A stretch of DNA of 64,000 nucleotides from a virus. The position numbers and the translations under genes were made by a program. The DNA lies in IMG/VR virus record IMGVR_UViG_3300045988_162372. One strand, given 5' to 3'. The notes under the pieces were generated by a model. That model saw only the letters and a list, made by a program, of their open reading frames with translations. It ran no database searches and was not told the origin of the DNA. Numbering within the stretch: position 1 is the first letter of the stretch; every line of letters begins with the position of its first letter. Shown here piece after piece: positions 19,819 through 58,968 of the stretch.

Positions 19819-19854
19819 AATAATGGTCACATTTAATCAATTGTGACCATTATT
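19819..19854. terminator. Bidirectional hairpin between convergent genes
   Basis: 13-bp stem AATAATGGTCACA / TGTGACCATTATT with a 10-nt loop. Confidence 0.7.
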
Positions 19855-33395: not shown

Positions 33396-33425
33396 AAAAG
33401 CCTCTTTAAATTATAAAGAGGCTTT
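33396..33425 (-). terminator. Rho-independent terminator
   Basis: 13-bp stem AAAAGCCTCTTTA / TAAAGAGGCTTTT, followed by a T-run on the minus strand. Confidence 0.75.
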
Positions 33426-35660: not shown

Positions 35661-37922
35661 TCAACTAATGGTCTTGCTTTTATTATATGTATTATTTATA
35701 ATGTCCCATATCTTATCAAGATAACCCATTCTTCTGATTATCTTGTAAATAACATTTCCGCTTCCCATTTCACCAGAACGCTTAAGACTCTCTTTCCGTA
35801 TTCCTTTTATTTTATCCAATAGTTTTTTAACATTCTTACCTATCATATCTATCTTATGGTTATCTGTTTCTTTTTTTAGGTCTTTTTCGTAACTGTCTAT
35901 CAGTGTCATAAACTTAGCTGCCTGTTCTTTGACATAGACTTCATTTATCTTAGCATCATCAATGTTTTTTGGTTCTTTAATCCATTCATTCTTGTCAAGC
36001 GAATAGACACCACCCGCCTCTAATTTATCGTCTTTATCTTGAACATATAATTCAACAGGAAAACCGTATATTGTTAAATCTTCATGGTCTCGTTTCCATA
36101 GTTCCTTTTTACTGTTAAAATAATCTTCTACAAATTCTTTTTTCTTGTATATCTTGCTGAAGTCTATAATGATATGCACATCAATGTCAGAATATTTAGA
36201 CCAATTATAATTTGCAATAGAACCTGTAAGAATTATATCCTCTGGTTTCACCCATCTTACAGAAAGTTCGTCTATAAAATCATCAGCTATGTCAAGAAGT
36301 CTTAATCGTACCCGTGAATTAAGTTTATCATTAACCCATATCTTAGGATTAAGTTCATCTTGTACTTCAAACGATTTCAAACTTATGTCAGAGCTTGACA
36401 CTTCATTTATTCTATTAACTGATTCAAGCACCCCTTGTTGGCGTAGATAATCTTCTCCAACAGTCTGACGCAGTATTTGTAATATAACAACATCATCCAC
36501 CCTATATTCTCCGATTTGATTAAGCAGTTTGTTATGCTCCCCTATATAGTTTGCAAAATCATATATATCACCATTACATTTCTTTAATATATTGCTGAAT
36601 GTTTCTTGATTATACCAATCTAGTTCTTCAATTCTAAAATTCCTACCTTGAATACTAACAGAACTATCACGGGAGGTTACTTCGCCCCCATTCATGAATT
36701 CAAATGTATGATTTTCAAATTCAGATTTATCAACTTCAATAGAAAATACAACGCCTCTTGCAAAATTATCTTTGAAAGATGTGAAAAACCAGTTAACTCC
36801 ATAAGTCTCCCCAGTCCTTTTTCCATGACGAGCATTTATTTCTCCATCAAGCAATATATCTTCCAACGCAAATATATCAGTTCCATGATATAGTCTTATT
36901 TTTTGTGGAAGACTATCATAATTTTCAGGTTTCCATTCATTTATATGTTGCACAGATTCATTTGTCGGATTGGATAATATATTCATTATTTCTTGTTTTG
37001 TATGAAAAATGGGGTTTTCTTCTTTGTCAAACAAATAAACACCTTCAATAGCATTAGGCATTACAATACCCCTATACCCTATTTTTGGAAATTTTGTACC
37101 ATATCTCTTACTATTTTGCGCAATCTCGCCTTTAAATGCATTCCAATAAGGTTTGGAAGACGTATAAGGATCATCTTTTCCTGGATATGTAAATTCCTTA
37201 ACAAAGTCAAAGTCAAGTACAACTTTATTCTTATCTATATGGTCTGAATTAATTTTCAAAACCGCCATAGGTGATTTTTTATCATCATTATACATGCCAG
37301 CGTAAGATTTAGCAATAGCGAAATCAGATGTAAGGAAAACAAATCCGTCATTTTTTGCATTAAAAATTGAATTGTCTTGCATTTTTCTAAGACCTTTGGT
37401 TAAAATGCCATATAAATGCTTCATAACAGTACCATGATATAATGGATTGGCGATTTGGATTGTATGCGGATTTTTTACTGTATCATTAATTGTTACAGCC
37501 TTACCATTTACAATAATTTTATCAAATGCCTTTGATTGTTCACTTTGTAGGAATTGCTTAAATTCAGGTGATGCTGTTACATTATATGATGTATTTTCAA
37601 TATCTAAACTCAAGCCATCATCATCATAATCAACCATACCTATTATGACTTTGGGAAAACTAATGAAATAATCATATATTGCATTAATAACATCTCCACT
37701 ATTATGGAATTCATTTTTTAATGCCCCATCATTATAAAAGAAATGTTCTTTTACAGATGGAAAAGCATCGCATAATTCTTTAATCAAACGCATTAAAGTA
37801 TTACTATATCCGTCTTCCTCATTCAAAATATACACATTTCCTTTGAAGATGACTACCATATCATCAACATCCAAAGCATTGAAGTTACCATTTACATATC
37901 TTAATTCGCAAATATCAGCCAT
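35661..37922 (-). CDS. Multidomain protein: two tandem ART-fold-like (Tpt1/KptA/PARP-type LYHGT) modules plus a Pol-beta-superfamily nucleotidyltransferase domain
   Basis: PLYHGTVMKHLYGILTKGL...GFVFLTSDFAIAKSYA and RLYHGTDIFALEDILLDGE...GVNWFFTSF. NTase motif ILTGSIANYNWSKYSDIDVHIIIDF plus downstream FPVELYVQD. Confidence 0.5.
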   Translation of the reverse strand: MADICELRYVNGNFNALDVDDMVVIFKGNVYILNEEDGYSNTLMRLIKELCDAFPSVKEHFFYNDGALKNEFHNSGDVINAIYDYFISFPKVIIGMVDYDDDGLSLDIENTSYNVTASPEFKQFLQSEQSKAFDKIIVNGKAVTINDTVKNPHTIQIANPLYHGTVMKHLYGILTKGLRKMQDNSIFNAKNDGFVFLTSDFAIAKSYAGMYNDDKKSPMAVLKINSDHIDKNKVVLDFDFVKEFTYPGKDDPYTSSKPYWNAFKGEIAQNSKRYGTKFPKIGYRGIVMPNAIEGVYLFDKEENPIFHTKQEIMNILSNPTNESVQHINEWKPENYDSLPQKIRLYHGTDIFALEDILLDGEINARHGKRTGETYGVNWFFTSFKDNFARGVVFSIEVDKSEFENHTFEFMNGGEVTSRDSSVSIQGRNFRIEELDWYNQETFSNILKKCNGDIYDFANYIGEHNKLLNQIGEYRVDDVVILQILRQTVGEDYLRQQGVLESVNRINEVSSSDISLKSFEVQDELNPKIWVNDKLNSRVRLRLLDIADDFIDELSVRWVKPEDIILTGSIANYNWSKYSDIDVHIIIDFSKIYKKKEFVEDYFNSKKELWKRDHEDLTIYGFPVELYVQDKDDKLEAGGVYSLDKNEWIKEPKNIDDAKINEVYVKEQAAKFMTLIDSYEKDLKKETDNHKIDMIGKNVKKLLDKIKGIRKESLKRSGEMGSGNVIYKIIRRMGYLDKIWDIINNTYNKSKTIS

Positions 37923-38019: not shown

Positions 38020-39141
38020 ATGCAAAAAGAAAATACAGTTACAGAAAATGCAAAGGAAATAAAAGACGTTTTGCCAAAGGTAGGATTAACTCCTAAGCAG
38101 CTTCATGACCAGCTTAATGAATACATCATTGGTCAGGATGAAGCAAAGAAAACTCTATGTGTTGGGATGTATAATCATTGGAAAAGAGTTTTAATGAATA
38201 AAATGGGACTAACCATTGATAACGAAACTTTGAAAGATGTAAATATAGAAAAATCAAATATACTGCTACTTGGTAATACAGGTACAGGAAAAACTTATAT
38301 TATTAAAACTCTTGCGAAAATGTTGGGTTTGCCTTGCTATATTGGTGACGCAACTAGACTTACTAGTGCAGGGTATGTAGGTGATGACATAGAAACTGTT
38401 ATCACTGGGCTTTTACAAGAATGCAATTACAATGTGCAAGCTGCTGAAATGGGAATTATTTGTATTGACGAAGCAGATAAGCTATCACGAAAAGGAGATA
38501 ATCCTTCTCTGACAAGAGATGTTGGTGGTGAAAGTGTGCAACAAGGAATCCTAAAGATTGTAGAAGGTGGCGTTGTAGGTGTACCTCCCTTTGGTGGTAG
38601 AAAACATCCTGAACAACCGTTGCTTTATGTTGATACAACAAATATTCTTTTCATTTTTATGGGAGCTTTTGAAGGATTGGATAAGATTATATCTAAACGT
38701 TGTAATACTTGTCGTATTGGTTTTAATCAGCAACCTACAGTAAAGAATACGGAAGATATAATGAACAATGTAACGCCAGAAGATTTGAAGAAATATGGAT
38801 TTATCCCAGAATTGATAGGTCGTTTCCCAATCATTACATCAACCAAAGATTTAACTAAAAAAGATTTAGTCAGAATTTTGAAAGAACCTAAAAATGCGAT
38901 TATTAAACAATATCAAAAGCTATTAGCCCTTGATGATATTACATTGAATTTTTTAGACAAGGCACTTGAAAAGATTGCTGAATATGCATTGGAAACAAAA
39001 ACTGGTGCAAGAGGGTTGAAAAGAATTATGGAACAAGTATTGAACAATGTTATGTACGATTTTTCTGATTATAAAGGAAAGACTATTACCATAGATACAA
39101 AATATGTTGTCAATACTCTAAAATATAAAAAAGCTGCTTAA
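38020..39141 (+). CDS. clpX: ClpX-like AAA+ unfoldase lacking the N-terminal zinc-binding domain
   Basis: Collinear with E. coli ClpX from about residue 62. Walker A LLLGNTGTGKT, pore loop GYVG, Walker B ICIDEADKL, RKH loop GGRKHP, IGF loop CRIGFN, sensor TGARGLKRI. No C4 zinc-ribbon N-domain. Confidence 0.92.
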   Translation: MQKENTVTENAKEIKDVLPKVGLTPKQLHDQLNEYIIGQDEAKKTLCVGMYNHWKRVLMNKMGLTIDNETLKDVNIEKSNILLLGNTGTGKTYIIKTLAKMLGLPCYIGDATRLTSAGYVGDDIETVITGLLQECNYNVQAAEMGIICIDEADKLSRKGDNPSLTRDVGGESVQQGILKIVEGGVVGVPPFGGRKHPEQPLLYVDTTNILFIFMGAFEGLDKIISKRCNTCRIGFNQQPTVKNTEDIMNNVTPEDLKKYGFIPELIGRFPIITSTKDLTKKDLVRILKEPKNAIIKQYQKLLALDDITLNFLDKALEKIAEYALETKTGARGLKRIMEQVLNNVMYDFSDYKGKTITIDTKYVVNTLKYKKAA

Positions 39142-39239
39142 CAGCAACTACCATAAGGCTTCATATCTCAGCAATCATCTATGTGTAGTGCATAGCAGCT
39201 TTATAATTAAATATCATAAAGGAATACAAAGTTATATAA

Positions 39240-39662
39240 ATGAATAATAAAGACAGAAAAGTTAAACAAGTAATAGTTATCAGGAAAGATTTGAAAATGA
39301 GAACTGGCAAAGCAATAGCACAAGGTTCTCATGCATCATTAGGTGCATTGCTTACTGTGTTTGATAAAATGGAATATCCAGATGATAGGGTTAAATATAC
39401 TCTATCCTTTAATAAGGATTCTGTATTGGATAAATGGCTTAATGGCATATTTACCAAAATATGTGTTTATGTCAATAGTGAAAAAGAATTGGATGAATTA
39501 TATAATAATATAAAAAGTAACTCCCCACAAATACCTTGTGTACTTATTGAAGATGTGGGTTTAACAGAGTTTCATAACGTTAAAACGAAAACTTGTATAG
39601 GTATAGGCCCTTGGTGGAATGATGAAATTGATGAATATACAAAAAATTTACCACTTCTTTAA
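39240..39662 (+). CDS. Peptidyl-tRNA hydrolase, PTH2 (archaeal/eukaryotic-type) family
   Basis: KQVIVIRKDLKMRTGKAIAQGSHASLGA ... KICVYVNSEKEL ... IEDVGLTEF..KTKTCIGIGPW follows the PTH2 pattern. Confidence 0.8.
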   Translation: MNNKDRKVKQVIVIRKDLKMRTGKAIAQGSHASLGALLTVFDKMEYPDDRVKYTLSFNKDSVLDKWLNGIFTKICVYVNSEKELDELYNNIKSNSPQIPCVLIEDVGLTEFHNVKTKTCIGIGPWWNDEIDEYTKNLPLL

Positions 39663-39704
39663 AAATAAGCGATATTTATCGCAAATTATTATATATTTTT
39701 AATC

Positions 39705-40040
39705 ATGAATAAACTTAAATTAGATAATATCATTGAAGATGGTAAATATAAAGGGAAAAAGGTTTCAGAATTAGCTTTAAATAAAAAAGTAATTTTTGAA
39801 CTATTAAAGAATGGATATAATTTCGATGATGAAGTGTTGCTGCAAGCAGGTATAAAGAAAACTGTTAGGGACATTAGAACAAGGACTGAGGTTGTAGAAC
39901 ATGAAAAAGATACAAAAGTATATCCAAAAGAGACTGCGAGCATTTCAAAAATATTGAAAGATTTGGAAACTGTCGTTAATCAAAGTCAATACTATGATAG
40001 CAACAGTGACGGGGTTTTAAAAGATTTATCAGATGAATAG
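39705..40040 (+). CDS. Hypothetical protein
   Basis: ORF preceded by GATATTTATC at 39671. Confidence 0.5.
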   Translation: MNKLKLDNIIEDGKYKGKKVSELALNKKVIFELLKNGYNFDDEVLLQAGIKKTVRDIRTRTEVVEHEKDTKVYPKETASISKILKDLETVVNQSQYYDSNSDGVLKDLSDE

Positions 40041-40057
40041 TATAAGAAAGGAAATAT

Positions 40058-40987
40058 ATGGCTAATAATATTATAGGATTTGCTGGTAGGGCAAGAAGCG
40101 GAAAATCAACTTTAGCTCAAGTATTACATAATGAAGAAGGATATCAAATATTGACAATTGCAAATTATTTAAAAAAACTATGTTGTAAATTGTTGGGGGA
40201 TATATCCTTAACTCAATTAAATGAGTTAAAAAACAATGATACTGATATCACTAACCTATTAAAGATTGATGATAATTTCATACACATCATCAATGAAGCA
40301 ACTGGCATAGGTTATGAAGTGATTAAAAATGAATTGATTAATTTACCTTACGGAATTCCAACTGTAAGGGCAATGCTTCAAATTGTAGGAACTGATATTA
40401 TCAGAAAATATTACCCTGATTGGCATATTATCCAATTGGTTAATGAAATAGAAAGTTTACCAGATGATGTAAACATTGTAGTTGATGATGTACGTTTTCC
40501 AAATGAAAGAAAGGAAATAGAAAGATTGGGAGGTATTGTTATTTTTATTATGCGACCTACAATGCTTTCAATGGTTTATAATCATCCTTCTGAAATAAGT
40601 CTTCAATGGTTTAACTTCATGGAAAAAAGGATTATTATTAACTATTCAAATCAATATGAATTTATTAGTAATTTTCTTGAAATGAAAACAAATGATTTCA
40701 GAAGAATGCCTTTAAGACAAGAGAAATATTTAGAAAGTGTAAAGGGTATAAATCATTTGTATGGACTACAATATACAGACATTGAATTACTGAATCATAT
40801 TGTAAGTAATTTAACAGAAAATAATCTAATAAATAAACCTAGTTATTATCCGTATATATCTTTGACATGTAGTAACAGTTTTCAAAAGACAATAATAGCT
40901 ATGGAAGCCAATATCAAACATGGTGGAGAAAATAAAATTGATATTCTAGATCCATTTATAATTGAAAATTTAAAATTATATTTATAA
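40058..40987 (+). CDS. Deoxynucleoside monophosphate kinase-like protein with a C-terminal extension
   Basis: P-loop GFAGRARSGKSTLA and VVDDVRFPNERKEIERLGG (dNMP-kinase D.RF.NE motif). Confidence 0.65.
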   Translation: MANNIIGFAGRARSGKSTLAQVLHNEEGYQILTIANYLKKLCCKLLGDISLTQLNELKNNDTDITNLLKIDDNFIHIINEATGIGYEVIKNELINLPYGIPTVRAMLQIVGTDIIRKYYPDWHIIQLVNEIESLPDDVNIVVDDVRFPNERKEIERLGGIVIFIMRPTMLSMVYNHPSEISLQWFNFMEKRIIINYSNQYEFISNFLEMKTNDFRRMPLRQEKYLESVKGINHLYGLQYTDIELLNHIVSNLTENNLINKPSYYPYISLTCSNSFQKTIIAMEANIKHGGENKIDILDPFIIENLKLYL

Positions 40988-40998
40988 ACAGAACAATT

Positions 40999-41565
40999 AT
41001 GAAAAATTTTCCAGTAAAAGTAGACGGTAAAGAATATTGGATTTCACGTTCAATAGCAGTATGTGTGTTTGTATTTAAAATAAAAGGCAATAAACTGTAT
41101 GCCTTAATTGAACGCAGAGGAAAAGGTGCTGCTGATGAACAAGGAAAGCTATGCACCTGCTCAGGGTATCTAGACTTCAACGAATGTGATAGAGAAGCTA
41201 CCACAAGAGAATTAATGGAAGAGTGTGGGTTTATTGCAAAAGAAGAACGTTTACAATTTATGTATATCAATTCAGACCCCAAAGCGGATAAAAGACAGAA
41301 TGTAACAATACATTATGTTTATTTTGCGAAAGGTAACGAAGACTTTAATGAGAAGAAAGCTATTGGGGGAGAAGTAGATGAGGTTGCCGATGTAAAATGG
41401 ATGGAGATCGGAAATTTTGATAAAGATAAGGTGCTATATGTTAATATTTATGATATAATGGCTGAAGATTGGGCATTTAATCATGACCATATCATGATAG
41501 ACCATTTATCTAAATTCTTTAAACTGAAATATAATGGGCAAGAAAAAGAAAAAGAATCTGATTGA
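40999..41565 (+). CDS. Nudix hydrolase
   Basis: Nudix box GYLDFNECDREATTRELMEECGF (G-x5-E-x7-REUxEExGU). Confidence 0.85.
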   Translation: MKNFPVKVDGKEYWISRSIAVCVFVFKIKGNKLYALIERRGKGAADEQGKLCTCSGYLDFNECDREATTRELMEECGFIAKEERLQFMYINSDPKADKRQNVTIHYVYFAKGNEDFNEKKAIGGEVDEVADVKWMEIGNFDKDKVLYVNIYDIMAEDWAFNHDHIMIDHLSKFFKLKYNGQEKEKESD

Positions 41566-41755
41566 CGAAGACTGTATTAAGGCTTTCAGAAAAGCAAACA
41601 GAGAAATTGAAATGGAAAGAAACGGCGGAAGATGGATTGCAATAGATAGACCACACCGTAACAAAAAGAAGTATTACAGAAAAGAAAAACATAAAAATAA
41701 TGGGGATTCTAAAAATCTCCATTATTTTGCGTTTGTGTATATTGTCAAAAAATAA
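41534..41755 (+). CDS. Small basic ORF with ArfA-like (alternative ribosome-rescue factor) features; uncertain
   Basis: HRNKKKYYRKEKHKNNGD...KNLHYFAFVY versus E. coli ArfA [21 protein letters not shown]...[10 protein letters not shown] (from memory). It overlaps the Nudix 3' end by 32 nt and contains a terminator hairpin, so it could be spurious. Confidence 0.3.
   Translation: MGKKKKKNLIDEDCIKAFRKANREIEMERNGGRWIAIDRPHRNKKKYYRKEKHKNNGDSKNLHYFAFVYIVKK
41699..41723. terminator. Bidirectional hairpin terminator, located inside the small basic ORF
   Basis: 9-bp stem AATGGGGAT / ATCTCCATT (one G-U pair) with a 7-nt loop. T-rich tracts follow on both strands. Confidence 0.65.
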
Positions 41756-42437
41756 GTGCCTTTAATTTTTCAATGTCAGTAGAGATACGACCTCCTATAT
41801 CTTTTATATTCATTGTACTTTCTCTTGAAGTAAGCACAAGCATTGCATCAATTCTTCCGTTCTTTGTTAATGGTATCGCAAAAATAGAATTACTCCCGTT
41901 GTGTACTAATTTTTTACATAATCTTGCACCTACAGTTCCTTTATATTCTTTAATGTTTTCAATATAAAGATAACCATTTTTGTCCATTTCATTAAAAATG
42001 TCATAATATTCACTAGTTCTCTGTTTTTGATAATAATCCGAGATTGGCATGATTGAATCATTAGTAAAATCATATTGTTCATAAACTAAAGACATATATA
42101 AAAATGATACTTTGTTTATGTTCTCGGTTGAATTATGCATTTCCATTAAACATACCCTGTCTACACCATATCGCAGCCTGATATTTTCAAGTATAGGCGG
42201 AATCATCTGGTCTGCTAATAACCTTTTGTCTATAGAAGCAAAATGCTCTTGTCTGTCATTTTTTTGCAATGTCTCAATAACGTGTTCTAAATTAATAGGG
42301 TTAATTATTACAGAATATATTATTATAATTAGCAGTGTACAATATGTTGATACTGCAACCCCATTTCTTTTCACAGCACCAACGAACTTACTGAAAGCGG
42401 ATGCTATAGTTCCTAAAATTGTTTGTTTTTCATCCAT
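41745..42437 (-). CDS. Membrane-anchored protein with a GAF-like C-terminal domain
   Basis: TM helix YCTLLIIIIYSVIINPI. The C-terminal ...IFAIPLTKNGRIDAMLVLTSRE is reminiscent of GAF domains. Confidence 0.45.
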   Translation of the reverse strand: MDEKQTILGTIASAFSKFVGAVKRNGVAVSTYCTLLIIIIYSVIINPINLEHVIETLQKNDRQEHFASIDKRLLADQMIPPILENIRLRYGVDRVCLMEMHNSTENINKVSFLYMSLVYEQYDFTNDSIMPISDYYQKQRTSEYYDIFNEMDKNGYLYIENIKEYKGTVGARLCKKLVHNGSNSIFAIPLTKNGRIDAMLVLTSRESTMNIKDIGGRISTDIEKLKALIF

Positions 42438-42480
42438 TATTGTCTGTATTTGTTTATAATAAATAGTATATTGAAAAAAT

Positions 42481-42507
42481 AAAACGGCAGATATTTTCTA
42501 CCGTTTT
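42481..42507 (-). terminator. Terminator after the 1546-aa fibre gene
   Basis: Stem AAAACGG..CCGTTTT followed by a T-run on the minus strand. Confidence 0.6.
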
Positions 42508-42529
42508 ATCCATGTAAAGTATATCTATT

Positions 42530-45500
42530 TTACTCAAAAGTAATTGTTGGGAATTTATTTGCATCATAATTTATACAATAATCGCTTCCCTGTATAGCAT
42601 CTATACAAACAACAACTACTTGATTTTCATCTTTGCTACCACAAACTGACACTATATCCGAAGGTAATATCTTTTCACCATTATGGATTAAATTAATAAA
42701 GTTTACTTTAATCTTTTCTGGACTGAATAAGTTAGCTTCTTCAGCTTGGGCTTCACTTTCTGTATTAGTATAATCTTCACATATTAAGAAACCACTCCAT
42801 AAAGGATTGCTATCCCACTCATCAACTGTACAGTTAATAATATTGACAGTTACTCCACTTGCATTAGATTTATTACTTAATCTTAATGCGTTAGATATTC
42901 TTTCAAAGTAACAGTTATTCAAAGTAATAGTTGCATTATTTTGTGTTCCAAATATTAATATCGCATTATTTGAGAAGCTACCCTCAAATCTACAATTATC
43001 AAAGATTATATTTTTAGGCAACTTAGAATTATCAGATGATAAACCAATTTCAATACCATTATAAACATTACTTGAATTAAATGTCATATCTTTAAAGATT
43101 ATATTTTCAGTATCATTAATGTTTATTACAGAATTTGAAGTTGATTTAGGAAAGTCACCAGTTACTTGTAAATTATTTATATTAACATTTTCCGCTTTGA
43201 TTCGCATTCTTGCATTATTAGTTAATGTAGAATCATTTAAGATTACAGACTTTGCCGTAATAGATGGGCTATTCGTTATATTAGCATTACTTATTGAATA
43301 CGCTTTAGCTTCATCGTTTAATTCCTGAGAACCATCATAGGTTTCAACTACTTCTGAATTTGATTTTTCTAAATTATCTACTTTTGATTCTAATAATTCA
43401 ACTTTTGCAGACAAGATAGGAATGTTGGATTTTAAATCATTAACAGTTTGATACAAACTTTCGATTTGAGTGTTAATTTTACTTATGATAGCAAATTCTT
43501 CAACTTTAGCTGCTTGGAATACGCTATATACGCCATCAGTAATTTTAATTGATACAGTATACAAACCTGTTGGTTGCATCATATAGTTTTGTCCCACAAT
43601 ATACAGAACATATGCTGCTCCGTTCCAAGCTACTGATATTGGCATCCAATTTGACAGCAACTGATAACCCTTTCCTAAGCAATCATCAAGAATTTCGGCT
43701 GTAGGTAATGTATAACTACCACTTGAGGTTTCTAATTGCAATGCTGCCTTAATATCATCCTCAGAGCTTTCCTTAGTTAAAGCAAACAGTTTTCGTGTAT
43801 CTACTTTAACACCTTGGTAGTACATACCTTTCTTTTGAATTTTTCCATCCAAAACCTTACCTTGTTTAGCTGACAAAGGTAATGTAGCTTCGTCACTAGT
43901 CAAATTGTCAACAACCATCTCTTCGCTCATAACGCTATGTGTTACGCTATTCTTTGCGAGAGTTCCACTTGTATTTTGAATATTGATTTCATTCAAGGTA
44001 TAACCTGCGAGGCTATCAAGTACATAATAAACAGTAGTAATATTACCCAATATTCTAATGGAAACTGGCACAGTTCCATTATTAATATCGCCAATAACGC
44101 TTCTGTTTTCGCTTATAACCGCCCTCAAATTATCAATTCCACCAATAGCCGTTGAAATAGCTTCACTATCAGCATCACCCGCACTATTCAATGCATTCAA
44201 ATCGATTTCATAAGGAGCTTTGAATTGTTCCAAGTCAGCCTTAATTTCATCAATGTCAGCTTGTTCTGCTTTTGTTGCGATAGCAGCATCAACTTCATCT
44301 TTGGTTTGATACAATGAATCGTTTTCCAATTCACTTACCTTAGTAGGAACGGTAATCTCTTGAACATCGCTAAGCAATGCTAATTCAGCGTCATCATTAT
44401 AGGTAGGTCTTTCGTCCTTTCCATTCAGATTGATTGAAACTTGAGTAGAACCTAAATCAACCTTATCCCACTTAGATACCATTGCGATATTAACTGCGCT
44501 TCCGCTTGTTGTATTTCCAAGCAAAGTATCATGATTATTCAGCACAATAGCCTTACGGTTCGGATTTTCCTCAGTTGTAACATCAGTATAAGCTACCTTA
44601 TTAGCCAATTCAGTTTCAATTTCCGTATCCTTAGCAATTCTTGCTTGAGTTTCTGCTTCAATGTTTCCTTGCAATTCAGTATCTTTTGCTGAACGGGCTT
44701 CAATTTCAGCGTTCAAAGCTTCAGTGGTTGCCTTTTCTGCAATTTGGGTAGTAAGAGAAGCTACAATATCATCATTGTCTGACAATTTATTTGCAATTTC
44801 TTCCAACGTATCCAATGCTTCAGGTGCTGCACCAACTACCGCTTGGATTCTAGCATCAACTTCGCTTGAAGTTTGGTATTGAGCATCATTTTCCAATTCG
44901 CTAACTTTTGTAGGAATTTTGATAGCATCAATCTTCTCATTCAACGCATTAACCTGGAAGTCAACATCAGATTGATTAGCCTTCAACGCAACTTCATCCT
45001 TGGTTGCTAAATTAGAAATATCTTGATGTTCTTTCAAAAATCCTTGAGTATTTACCCATTCCTCAGTTGCATAACCGTCCAATGAAGGCATATCAGTAGC
45101 AAATGCCAAATCGCTACTTGTTACTTTGATGTTAGAATTACCTTCAGCAATCGTACCATCCAAGTTGATAATAATTTCATACTTGGTAGGCATGTCATTA
45201 GTTGTATCAAGACCAATAACAACCATCTTGATTTGGTTTGCAGATTCAAATGCAATATATTGAATCGGCATCTTATAGTAATAAGGATTTCCACTCAATT
45301 GAATACCGAATTTCAAGTAGAATTGACCTTCCCTTACAATAAGACCTTTTAATTCAGCAGCATCAGCAACGCTAAACCAACCAAAGATTTCTTTTTGAGT
45401 ATATACCTTATCTTGCAAAGTTCTAATCGGGAAATTAAATTCAATAGGAAGTTTAATTTCTTCGATATCCTTCATCAATGCGATTTCTTCATCATCATTG

Positions 45501-58905: not shown

Positions 58906-58932
58906 TATAGAAACAATATAATAATATAATTT

Positions 58933-58968
58933 CCTTGCCATACTGAATGGTGAGGATTATATTTTTTT
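58933..58968 (+). terminator. Rho-independent terminator
   Basis: 9-bp stem CCTTGCCAT / ATGGTGAGG (two G-U pairs) with a 5-nt loop, then a T7 run at 58962-58968. Confidence 0.65.

Follow-up and report, generated by a model that had tools for sequence, protein, structure and literature searches.

A conserved terminator or cleavage hairpin placed ahead of the stop codon is known in only two gene families, ArfA and BrfA, and the two also have in common a K-H motif that contacts U534 of the 16S rRNA (PMC6881298). In BrfA this motif is K49-H50, the product comprises ~62 of 71 residues, and 9 codons remain untranscribed (PMC6881298); a further rescue factor, ArfT, is not produced from non-stop mRNA. 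Here we describe a 73-codon open reading frame (ORF) at positions 41534-41755 on the + strand of a 64,000-nucleotide stretch of viral DNA (IMG/VR record IMGVR_UViG_3300045988_162372; hereafter the window), which encodes a small basic protein and carries a terminator-like hairpin inside its own reading frame. We favour the reading, with a probability of roughly 0.5, that this ORF encodes a functional analogue of ArfA and BrfA, possibly a very distant relative of them, that would be made from non-stop mRNA and gated by trans-translation.

The ORF opens with an ATG, closes with a TAA at 41753-41755, and is the final cistron of a + strand operon. As an initial annotation of this DNA had described, the 73-aa frame is present in the ORF list and starts within the 3' end of a Nudix gene (40999-41565; PF00293, E=1.4e-8), the two sharing 32 nucleotides (nt); a further 11 nt are shared with a convergent 230-aa gene on the - strand (41745-42437). 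The alignments resolve two conserved parts, an N-terminal module at I15-W34 (IKAFRKANREIEMERNGGRW, 41576-41635) that ends in an invariant tryptophan, and a basic core at P40-K54 (PHRNKKKYYRKEKHK, 41651-41695) that includes Y47-x-R49-K50 and K52-H53. An AlphaFold2 model of the protein (overall pLDDT 66) has a helix at residues 12-29 (pLDDT ~80) followed by an extended segment.

Directly after the basic core begins the hairpin, which has 15 pairs and the loop CTAAA, spans 41694-41728 and covers codons 54-65; the initial annotation had recognised its inner part as a 9-bp stem at 41699-41723, which is real and extends to these limits. T-rich tracts flank it on both strands, as that annotation had also seen. 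On the + strand ATTATTTTGCGTTTG (41721-41735) follows the stem's G+C core and, judging from the geometry usual for intrinsic terminators, is the expected zone of 3' ends, and on the - strand TTTTTATGTTTTTCTTTT follows the hairpin at 41676-41693. The + strand fold has an energy of -17.2 kcal/mol (z=-5.9), which none of 200 shuffles equalled, and the - strand fold has -12.6 kcal/mol (z=-5.6), the weaker value arising because one G.U pair turns into an A-C mismatch. It is the only terminator-like site found by the terminator scan in 40500-43000, where shuffles give 0.7, and a scan of the whole 64 kb found no clean + strand terminator ahead of 41694 in the operon (38020-41565); Rfam holds no known RNA element near 41694-41728. 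The hairpin is plausibly a bidirectional terminator. For the convergent 230-aa gene, which the initial annotation had named as a second user, it lies in the canonical order, with the stop first and the hairpin 17 nt downstream. For the 73-codon ORF the stop lies 25 nt beyond the hairpin, and transcription that ended in the T-tract would therefore yield an mRNA without the ORF's stop codon, again as had been predicted. The scan of the whole 64 kb found ~10 clean A-tract/stem/T-tract sites, all intergenic (e.g. 4321, 19819, 33397, 42478 and 55797); the site at 41694 resembles these intergenic terminators of the phage in style and is the sole clean one within an ORF. As a separate observation, symmetric hairpins of the A-tract/stem/T-tract type form a uniform intergenic class in this phage, several of which score on both strands; examples of the class lie at 42478-42510 (- strand), 19819-19854, 33397-33425 and 58923-58963.

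The same arrangement recurs across the family. We surveyed 125 non-identical family loci by locating the core and seeking the best single hairpin in the sequence that follows it. At 79 loci a compact hairpin with a folding energy between -10.7 and -23.7 kcal/mol and a T-rich run behind it begins 19-48 nt past the first core codon, and the stop at every one of them coincides with the hairpin end or lies beyond it (median +23 nt, maximum 150), never within the loop, the 3' arm or the T-tract. The remaining 46 loci have their stop directly past the core and no terminator-like hairpin, the weak structures found there being irregular folds within an overlapping scaffold gene. The order core, stop, terminator occurs at none of the 125. 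The hairpins comprise at least 25 distinct stem types of unrelated sequence, for example AATGGGGATT, AGAGACTCTAA, AGAGGGTAA, GTGGCGGCCA and AAAGGACGTG, and RNAalifold applied to 13 marine members returned 9 pairs, 4 of them with compensatory double changes (e.g. C-G in six members and G-C in six). An independent scanner also flagged the in-ORF hairpin of loci L001 and L030. The hairpin is found at convergent gene ends (L001, L003 and the window) and equally within co-directional operons (L005, L030), and is therefore no by-product of a convergent neighbour. Together these comparisons show that the family conserves a predicted in-frame terminator, with covariation, in both genomic contexts and in two phage groups that are very unlike each other.

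The family itself is large and carries no functional label. A search of 5.8 billion proteins returned 89 close homologues of the 73-aa protein on contigs up to 368 kb, none of them annotated, and the identical protein is present on 146 contigs, also up to 368 kb, where it is named just 'hypothetical protein'. A profile search of 1.84 billion cluster representatives at E<=1e-3 extended this to 343 clusters at 50% identity. In a scan of cellular genomes, one per prokaryotic species, there were six matches, all on phage-looking contigs assembled from metagenomes, and the family of small basic proteins thus appears to be confined to phages. Its alignments give the core consensus W-x(5-8)-P-H-[RK]-N-K-K-K-Y-x-R-K-x-K-H-K, with W34, P40, N43, K44, K45, R49 and K50 (in the numbering of the window protein) invariant or nearly so, and the N-terminal module is conserved either as IKAFRKANREIELERNGGRW or as QEWxEALKxPTP.

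The gene takes three forms. In huge gut and rumen phages on 200-380-kb contigs, the window included, it encodes the full two-module protein and always stands last in an operon of ClpX-like AAA+ ATPase, PTH2, an intervening gene, dNMP kinase and Nudix, facing convergent genes. In marine and other small phages it encodes 56-70 aa of the pattern QHEWxDAxKxPTPHRNKKKYYRKEKHK followed by a tail, and stands alone within co-directional gene strings. The third form has 36-45 aa and a true stop just past the core, as in the 36-aa marine protein MKKIQLTTQEWKEALKLPTPHRNKKKYYRKQKHKNK. Most genes of this third form are nested, in the +1 frame, within another gene of T7-like marine phages, one that comes after portal and encodes an acidic, scaffold-like product of 400-420 aa; embedded members of 36-41 aa were found at loci L041, L047-L054, L057-L064, L070, L071, L075, L076, L078 and L080-L087 (for example, at L047 the small gene occupies 1944-2069 within 1691-2896). 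Across 36 embedded marine loci the entropy at small-frame positions 1, 2 and 3 of the core is 0.18, 0.08 and 0.75, which means that the small ORF is selected in its own frame; past the core the variation shifts to the third position of the long frame (0.61/0.39/1.02), and a functional protein can therefore end directly after the core. In the conservation check proposed with the initial annotation, the frame is kept in relatives up to the core, and frameshifts occur in the tail. By these comparative measures the ORF at 41534-41755 is shown to be a genuine gene under purifying selection up to its basic core.

The tail beyond the hairpin behaves very differently from the core. In the window its codons A66-K73 (AFVYIVKK, 41729-41752) are unconstrained, their hydrophobic character being that of T-rich DNA in translation. 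Relatives that are near-identical up to residue 57 diverge in the tail through indels, including a +2 frameshift, and shifted stops, and across the family both sequence and length vary past about residue 57, with 0-50 codons after the T-tract. In the marine group the tail 'SYIY' is what results when a recurrent + strand DNA motif, TCGTATAT[TA][TC]A, is translated, and the marine tail is on this account regulatory DNA rather than selected protein. The motif is also seen at several gene starts in marine loci, always on the coding strand, and lies directly upstream of the small gene and again directly after its hairpin; it was recorded at L005, L030-L042, L056, L084 and L144-L191, and at L084 its positions, counted from the core, are -1321, -87, +67 and +459. 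The motif is a probable phage promoter, in which case the small marine gene would be its own unit of promoter, ORF and terminator.

A mechanism of the kind described for ArfA and BrfA can be outlined from these features. Transcripts of the ClpX-like/PTH2/dNMP-kinase/Nudix operon on the + strand would end in the T-tract, at about 41726-41737, and the mRNA of the last cistron would therefore carry no stop codon. Ribosomes would run to the 3' end of this mRNA and stall there, with a product ending near residue 65-68. Active host trans-translation would tag this ~65-68-aa product and send it for degradation. If tmRNA-SmpB became saturated or were disabled, as could come about through mass cleavage of mRNA or tRNA during infection or abortive-infection defence, untagged product would build up. 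Its extended Lys/Arg tail (Y-x-R-K-x-K-H) would then enter the empty mRNA channel of non-stop ribosomes and the upstream helix and tryptophan module would recruit a release factor to free the peptide, while the co-encoded PTH2 would handle peptidyl-tRNA that has dropped off. Members with a true stop past the core would be a constitutive version of the same factor. A wider proposal, which we hold more tentatively and rate at somewhat under an even chance, is that the phage family as a whole, whose clusters number at least 343 and range from gut phages of ~360 kb to T7-like podoviruses of the sea, makes up a third lineage of ribosome rescue that depends on release factors, with an origin separate from those of ArfA and BrfA or else an extreme divergence from the two. 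Synthesis would be tied, in the majority of members, by the intragenic terminator to failure of host trans-translation, and in others, overprinted in the head-scaffold gene, it would be constitutive.

How far the protein resembles ArfA is a question with two sides. BLASTP aligns the window protein with ArfA over a stretch in which 8 of 22 residues are identical (pairwise E=0.003), and in every hhalign run Y-x-R-K-x-K-H falls in register with S-Y-M-R-K-G-K-H, the segment of ArfA that lies in the mRNA channel. The E. coli ArfA sequence that the initial annotation had used for its comparison is correct, being 97-100% identical to ArfA/PF03889 proteins, and the likeness it pointed out is seen in the basic segment as an alignment in register, K-H included. 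It does not extend to family membership, and a number of observations count against the rescue-factor assignment. Neither the window ORF nor any of 8 relatives matched PF03889 at E<=10, and the profile search that the annotation had suggested as a check matched none of 145 family representatives at E<=0.1; hhalign against narrow and broad ArfA alignments returned probabilities of 0.9-6.6%. Neither phmmer and profile searches of all PDB chains, presumably including those of the BrfA-ribosome structure, found a rescue factor at E<=10, nor did a Foldseek comparison of the AlphaFold2 model (pLDDT 66) with the PDB yield a match, and no significant homology to ArfA, BrfA, SmpB or ArfB was found. The segment common to the ORF and ArfA is short and compositionally biased, and the family alignments contain no counterpart of ArfA's RF2-binding segment (LLHDPLFRQR). 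Within the family, K-H is not universal, most huge-phage members carrying RKRDxK in place of K-x-K-H, and in a few relatives the module lies internally in proteins of 179-441 aa, an arrangement ill-suited to a C-terminal probe of the channel. In the window the T-tract on the + strand is not continuous (ATTATTTTG), and the overlap between terminator and gene end could reflect genome compaction. A test of whether the ORF frame is unusually free of stops is weak, with stops in the ORF frame in 0 of 17 lineages, in the +1 frame in 4 of 17 and in the +2 frame in 14 of 17. The earlier suggestion of a rescue factor working by ArfA's logic is supported as regards a real gene with a conserved in-frame terminator, and is not supported as regards membership of the ArfA family or an RF2-binding segment.

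Several of these points suit a different account, in which the protein is a small basic nucleic-acid-binding protein with another role, such as RNA or DNA binding, regulation or packaging, the terminator overlap results from genome compaction, the tail is harmless and the lack of a stop is irrelevant. A Lys/Arg-rich core would bind any nucleic acid, no rescue factor is significantly similar to the protein, the module can be internal in larger proteins, and in T7-like marine phages the gene belongs to the head-morphogenesis module, embedded in a scaffold-like gene. The 5' arm of the hairpin also overlaps the conserved RKRD codons, and a stop could therefore not precede the hairpin anyway; the stop-free-frame test, moreover, is weak. 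Against this account, not one stop falls in the loop, 3' arm or T-tract at the 79 unique loci with their 25 or more distinct stems, and the other clean terminators of the window are all in canonical order. Among known gene families the conserved hairpin-before-stop layout is shared with ArfA and BrfA alone, with the basic segment in register with theirs, and a PTH2 gene lies in the operon. We regard this account as less likely than a rescue factor, and give it the most weight among the alternatives.

Phages encode early ribosome-binding proteins. On this precedent the product could instead be an effector that targets the ribosome without rescuing it, its basic tail lodging in host ribosomes that are vacant or stalled, at the decoding centre or in the mRNA channel, so as to block trans-translation or host translation, or to protect ribosomes, while the phage takes over the cell, with its level reporting tmRNA activity. 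The evidence from architecture and motif is the same for this possibility as for a rescue factor, and the missing RF2-binding segment of ArfA would fit it; bona fide ArfA genes in phages and the co-encoded PTH2 favour rescue over blockade, and we consider such an effector improbable. A non-coding ORF that merely runs across a bidirectional terminator between convergent genes, a possibility the initial annotation had allowed for and one that would fit a short, lysine-rich frame in A-rich DNA overlapping both neighbours, is refuted by the comparative data, namely the frame conserved in 89 close homologues and 343 clusters, the invariant W, P, H, Y and R columns, the codon-phase evidence that this frame is itself under selection, and the occurrence of the gene in unrelated genomic contexts.

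Other identities were considered for the basic protein and set aside. A likeness to the SmpB tail (G-K-K-x-[HY]-D-K-R-x-D-x-K), seen by eye in huge-phage members (NKKKYDRKRDSK), gave a BLASTP E of 6.3 in an unrelated segment against E. coli SmpB, and no SmpB appeared in the PDB searches with the family. No Pfam scan returned a Ribosomal_S21 match that would indicate a bS21-like protein, and no ArfT or KGG-repeat family was among the Pfam matches of the 145 representatives. NCBIfam has no match for the family. The best library matches of the marine members, below threshold throughout, are DUF7230 (PF23876) and PHROGs 6310, 2701 and 18092, all of unknown function, at 15-19 bits and E=0.002-0.02. 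With DUF7230 these members score 15.3-18.9 bits against a gathering score of 27 bits; 12 of the 145 representatives match it at E<=0.1 (best E=1.8e-4), the basic segment alone aligns, and the window protein has no match to it. The internal copies noted above have the pattern YIKAIKKADRELEYELNGPGWxAKDKxHKNKxKYDRK in P0296, P0303, P0315, P0328 and P0353, one such protein having a DnaD/replisome-organiser-like N-terminus; they may be true fusions or miscalled read-throughs. The alignment A5 was too divergent for a locus scan, and the scan with P0273 was empty. The window has no DNA match among catalogued phages. Searches with full-length family proteins by tblastn gave no match, which the low-complexity filter may explain, and the less biased N-terminal part gave weak matches in uncultured phages of 635-735 kb.

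Genuine ArfA genes do occur in phages, a correction to the initial annotation, which had described ArfA as not known outside Proteobacteria or in phages of Bacteroidota; PF03889 genes are already annotated in several phages. The pelagiphage HTVC027P is reported to have a highly expressed gene with an ArfA domain (PMC12753301, 2025), which is gp30. Using ArfA as a tblastn query we found copies in Pseudoalteromonas phage J2-1 (ATN93434), Citromicrobium phage RXM (gp10) and Roseobacter phage CRP-212 (an unannotated ORF), among others, and also in Pseudomonas phages pf16 and Y3 and Salmonella phage Arash. All four phage ArfAs that were scanned pass the PF03889 threshold, at 29.6-72.5 bits. These phage ArfAs pass this threshold and keep the P-L-F-R-x-R segment, whereas the present family does neither. 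The J2-1 protein scores 41 bits with PF03889 and 28.6 bits, above threshold, with DUF7230, and matches the same PHROGs 6310, 2701 and 18092. Its end, KTKYRRKKKHKN, is identical to the window's KKKYYRKEKHKN at 9 of 12 positions, and it is to this bona fide phage ArfA that the basic segment is closest. Both of the family's gene-end designs have parallels among these genes, the RXM and Y3 ArfAs having an intragenic hairpin before the stop and those of J2-1, CRP-212, RsoM2USA and XM05 a true stop past the basic motif. The CRP-212 copy is furthermore embedded in a head-module gene, as is the short marine form of the family. This ORF, MRQKNPVAKILRTPRYRQRKVMPKKGKGSYKRNTKHRKETT (L194/L200; MZ892988.1, 39070-39192, on the record's minus strand), scores 33.3 bits with PF03889, is unannotated, and lies in an alternative frame of gp38, close to the 3' end of that gene, which is located between those for portal and coat. 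In pf16 (L195; KU873925.1, ~131775-131927) an unannotated ArfA ORF of 72.5 bits partly overlaps gp199 on the opposite strand, and in Arash a gene annotated 'ribosomal protein L2' (gp99c, L196) has a C-terminal part with 63% identity to E. coli ArfA across 38 residues. The concept of a phage-encoded ArfA is thus already known; the present family is unrecognised by any model, is large, and repeats the rare design of a terminator before the stop.

The genes upstream of the ORF in the window (38020-41565, + strand), assigned by Pfam, synteny and the terminator scan, encode a 373-aa ClpX-like AAA+ ATPase (AAA_2 and ClpB_D2-small; 38020-39141), a PTH2 peptidyl-tRNA hydrolase of the archaeal/eukaryotic type (E=1e-30; 39240-39662), a 111-aa ORF from the ORF list, a dNMP kinase (40058-40987), and the Nudix protein, whose matches are to Lak phage proteins only, at ~35% identity. 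The synteny is kept in the related huge phages L001-L004 and L088. A role for jumbo-phage PTH2 in ribosome rescue, as a hydrolase of peptidyl-tRNA, has been proposed (PMC7824862), and with PTH2 and a ClpX-like ATPase the gene content marks the operon context as translation-related. Divergent from the operon, at 35661-37922 on the - strand, is a 753-aa protein with weak Tpt1/KptA RNA 2'-phosphotransferase and PARP-like matches and a nucleotidyltransferase domain, which may be an enzyme of RNA repair or RNA modification. At the junction with the Nudix gene, the small ORF has an N-terminal lysine run, K3-K7, whose five Lys codons (AAGAAAAAGAAAAAG, 41540-41554) sit within the overlap; A-runs such as this can promote ribosome sliding, and a K-rich N-terminus is common among aligned huge-phage members. 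As regards the host, the Bacteroidota -7 motif TAnnTTTG is not enriched in the window, with 98 occurrences found and 107 expected.

If the rescue-factor reading is true, these genes would be a third family with the hairpin-before-stop layout, found in phages only, and this regulatory logic would be a recurrent evolutionary solution. Ribosome rescue would then be a contested resource in infection, for instance against defence nucleases that create non-stop complexes, phages would be routinely insured against the non-stop jams that follow mRNA or tRNA cleavage during infection or defence, and a large block of small 'hypothetical' phage genes would gain a name. The peptides are short (36-65 aa) and directly testable on non-stop ribosomes, and other rescue factors still hidden could be sought by looking for small basic ORFs whose stop is preceded by a conserved terminator. 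Whatever the function, the conserved terminator within the frame and the overprinting seen in marine phages are clear examples of an unusual gene architecture.

Set beside the two known systems, the gene combines features of each. ArfA (YhdL, PF03889; E. coli and the beta/gamma-proteobacteria) and the window ORF both have ~70 codons and a hairpin before the stop, an ArfA trait that at the sequence level is present in the window ORF and in 79 of 125 family loci. Both encode a dispensable hydrophobic tail past the hairpin, and the Y-x-R-K-x-K-H of the window ORF aligns in register with the Lys/Arg tail of ArfA, over a segment that is short and compositionally biased. They differ in that ArfA forms a beta-strand with RF2 through A-L-L-x-D-P-L-F-R-Q-R (F25), whereas the phage family has a helix and an invariant Trp in IKAFRKANREIELERNGGRW or QEWxEALKxPTP; the KGKGS motif of ArfA is absent from the phage family; and the phage hairpin resembles an intrinsic terminator, whereas that of ArfA is an RNase III site. 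The phage family, unlike ArfA, is found on phage contigs only. BrfA (YqkK, Bacillus subtilis), which has an origin independent of ArfA and an identical logic, differs in being chromosomal and restricted to Bacillus, and PDB searches at E<=10 detect no similarity of the phage family to it. In gene design BrfA and the window ORF are nonetheless alike, since in both a rho-independent terminator lies in the coding region and the last few codons would remain untranscribed (9 in BrfA, ~5-8 in the window ORF), and in both proteins a helical N-terminal part leads into a basic C-terminal extension that carries K-H. The predicted window product would end ~12-15 residues past K-H and lack 5-8 of the encoded residues, much as BrfA does.

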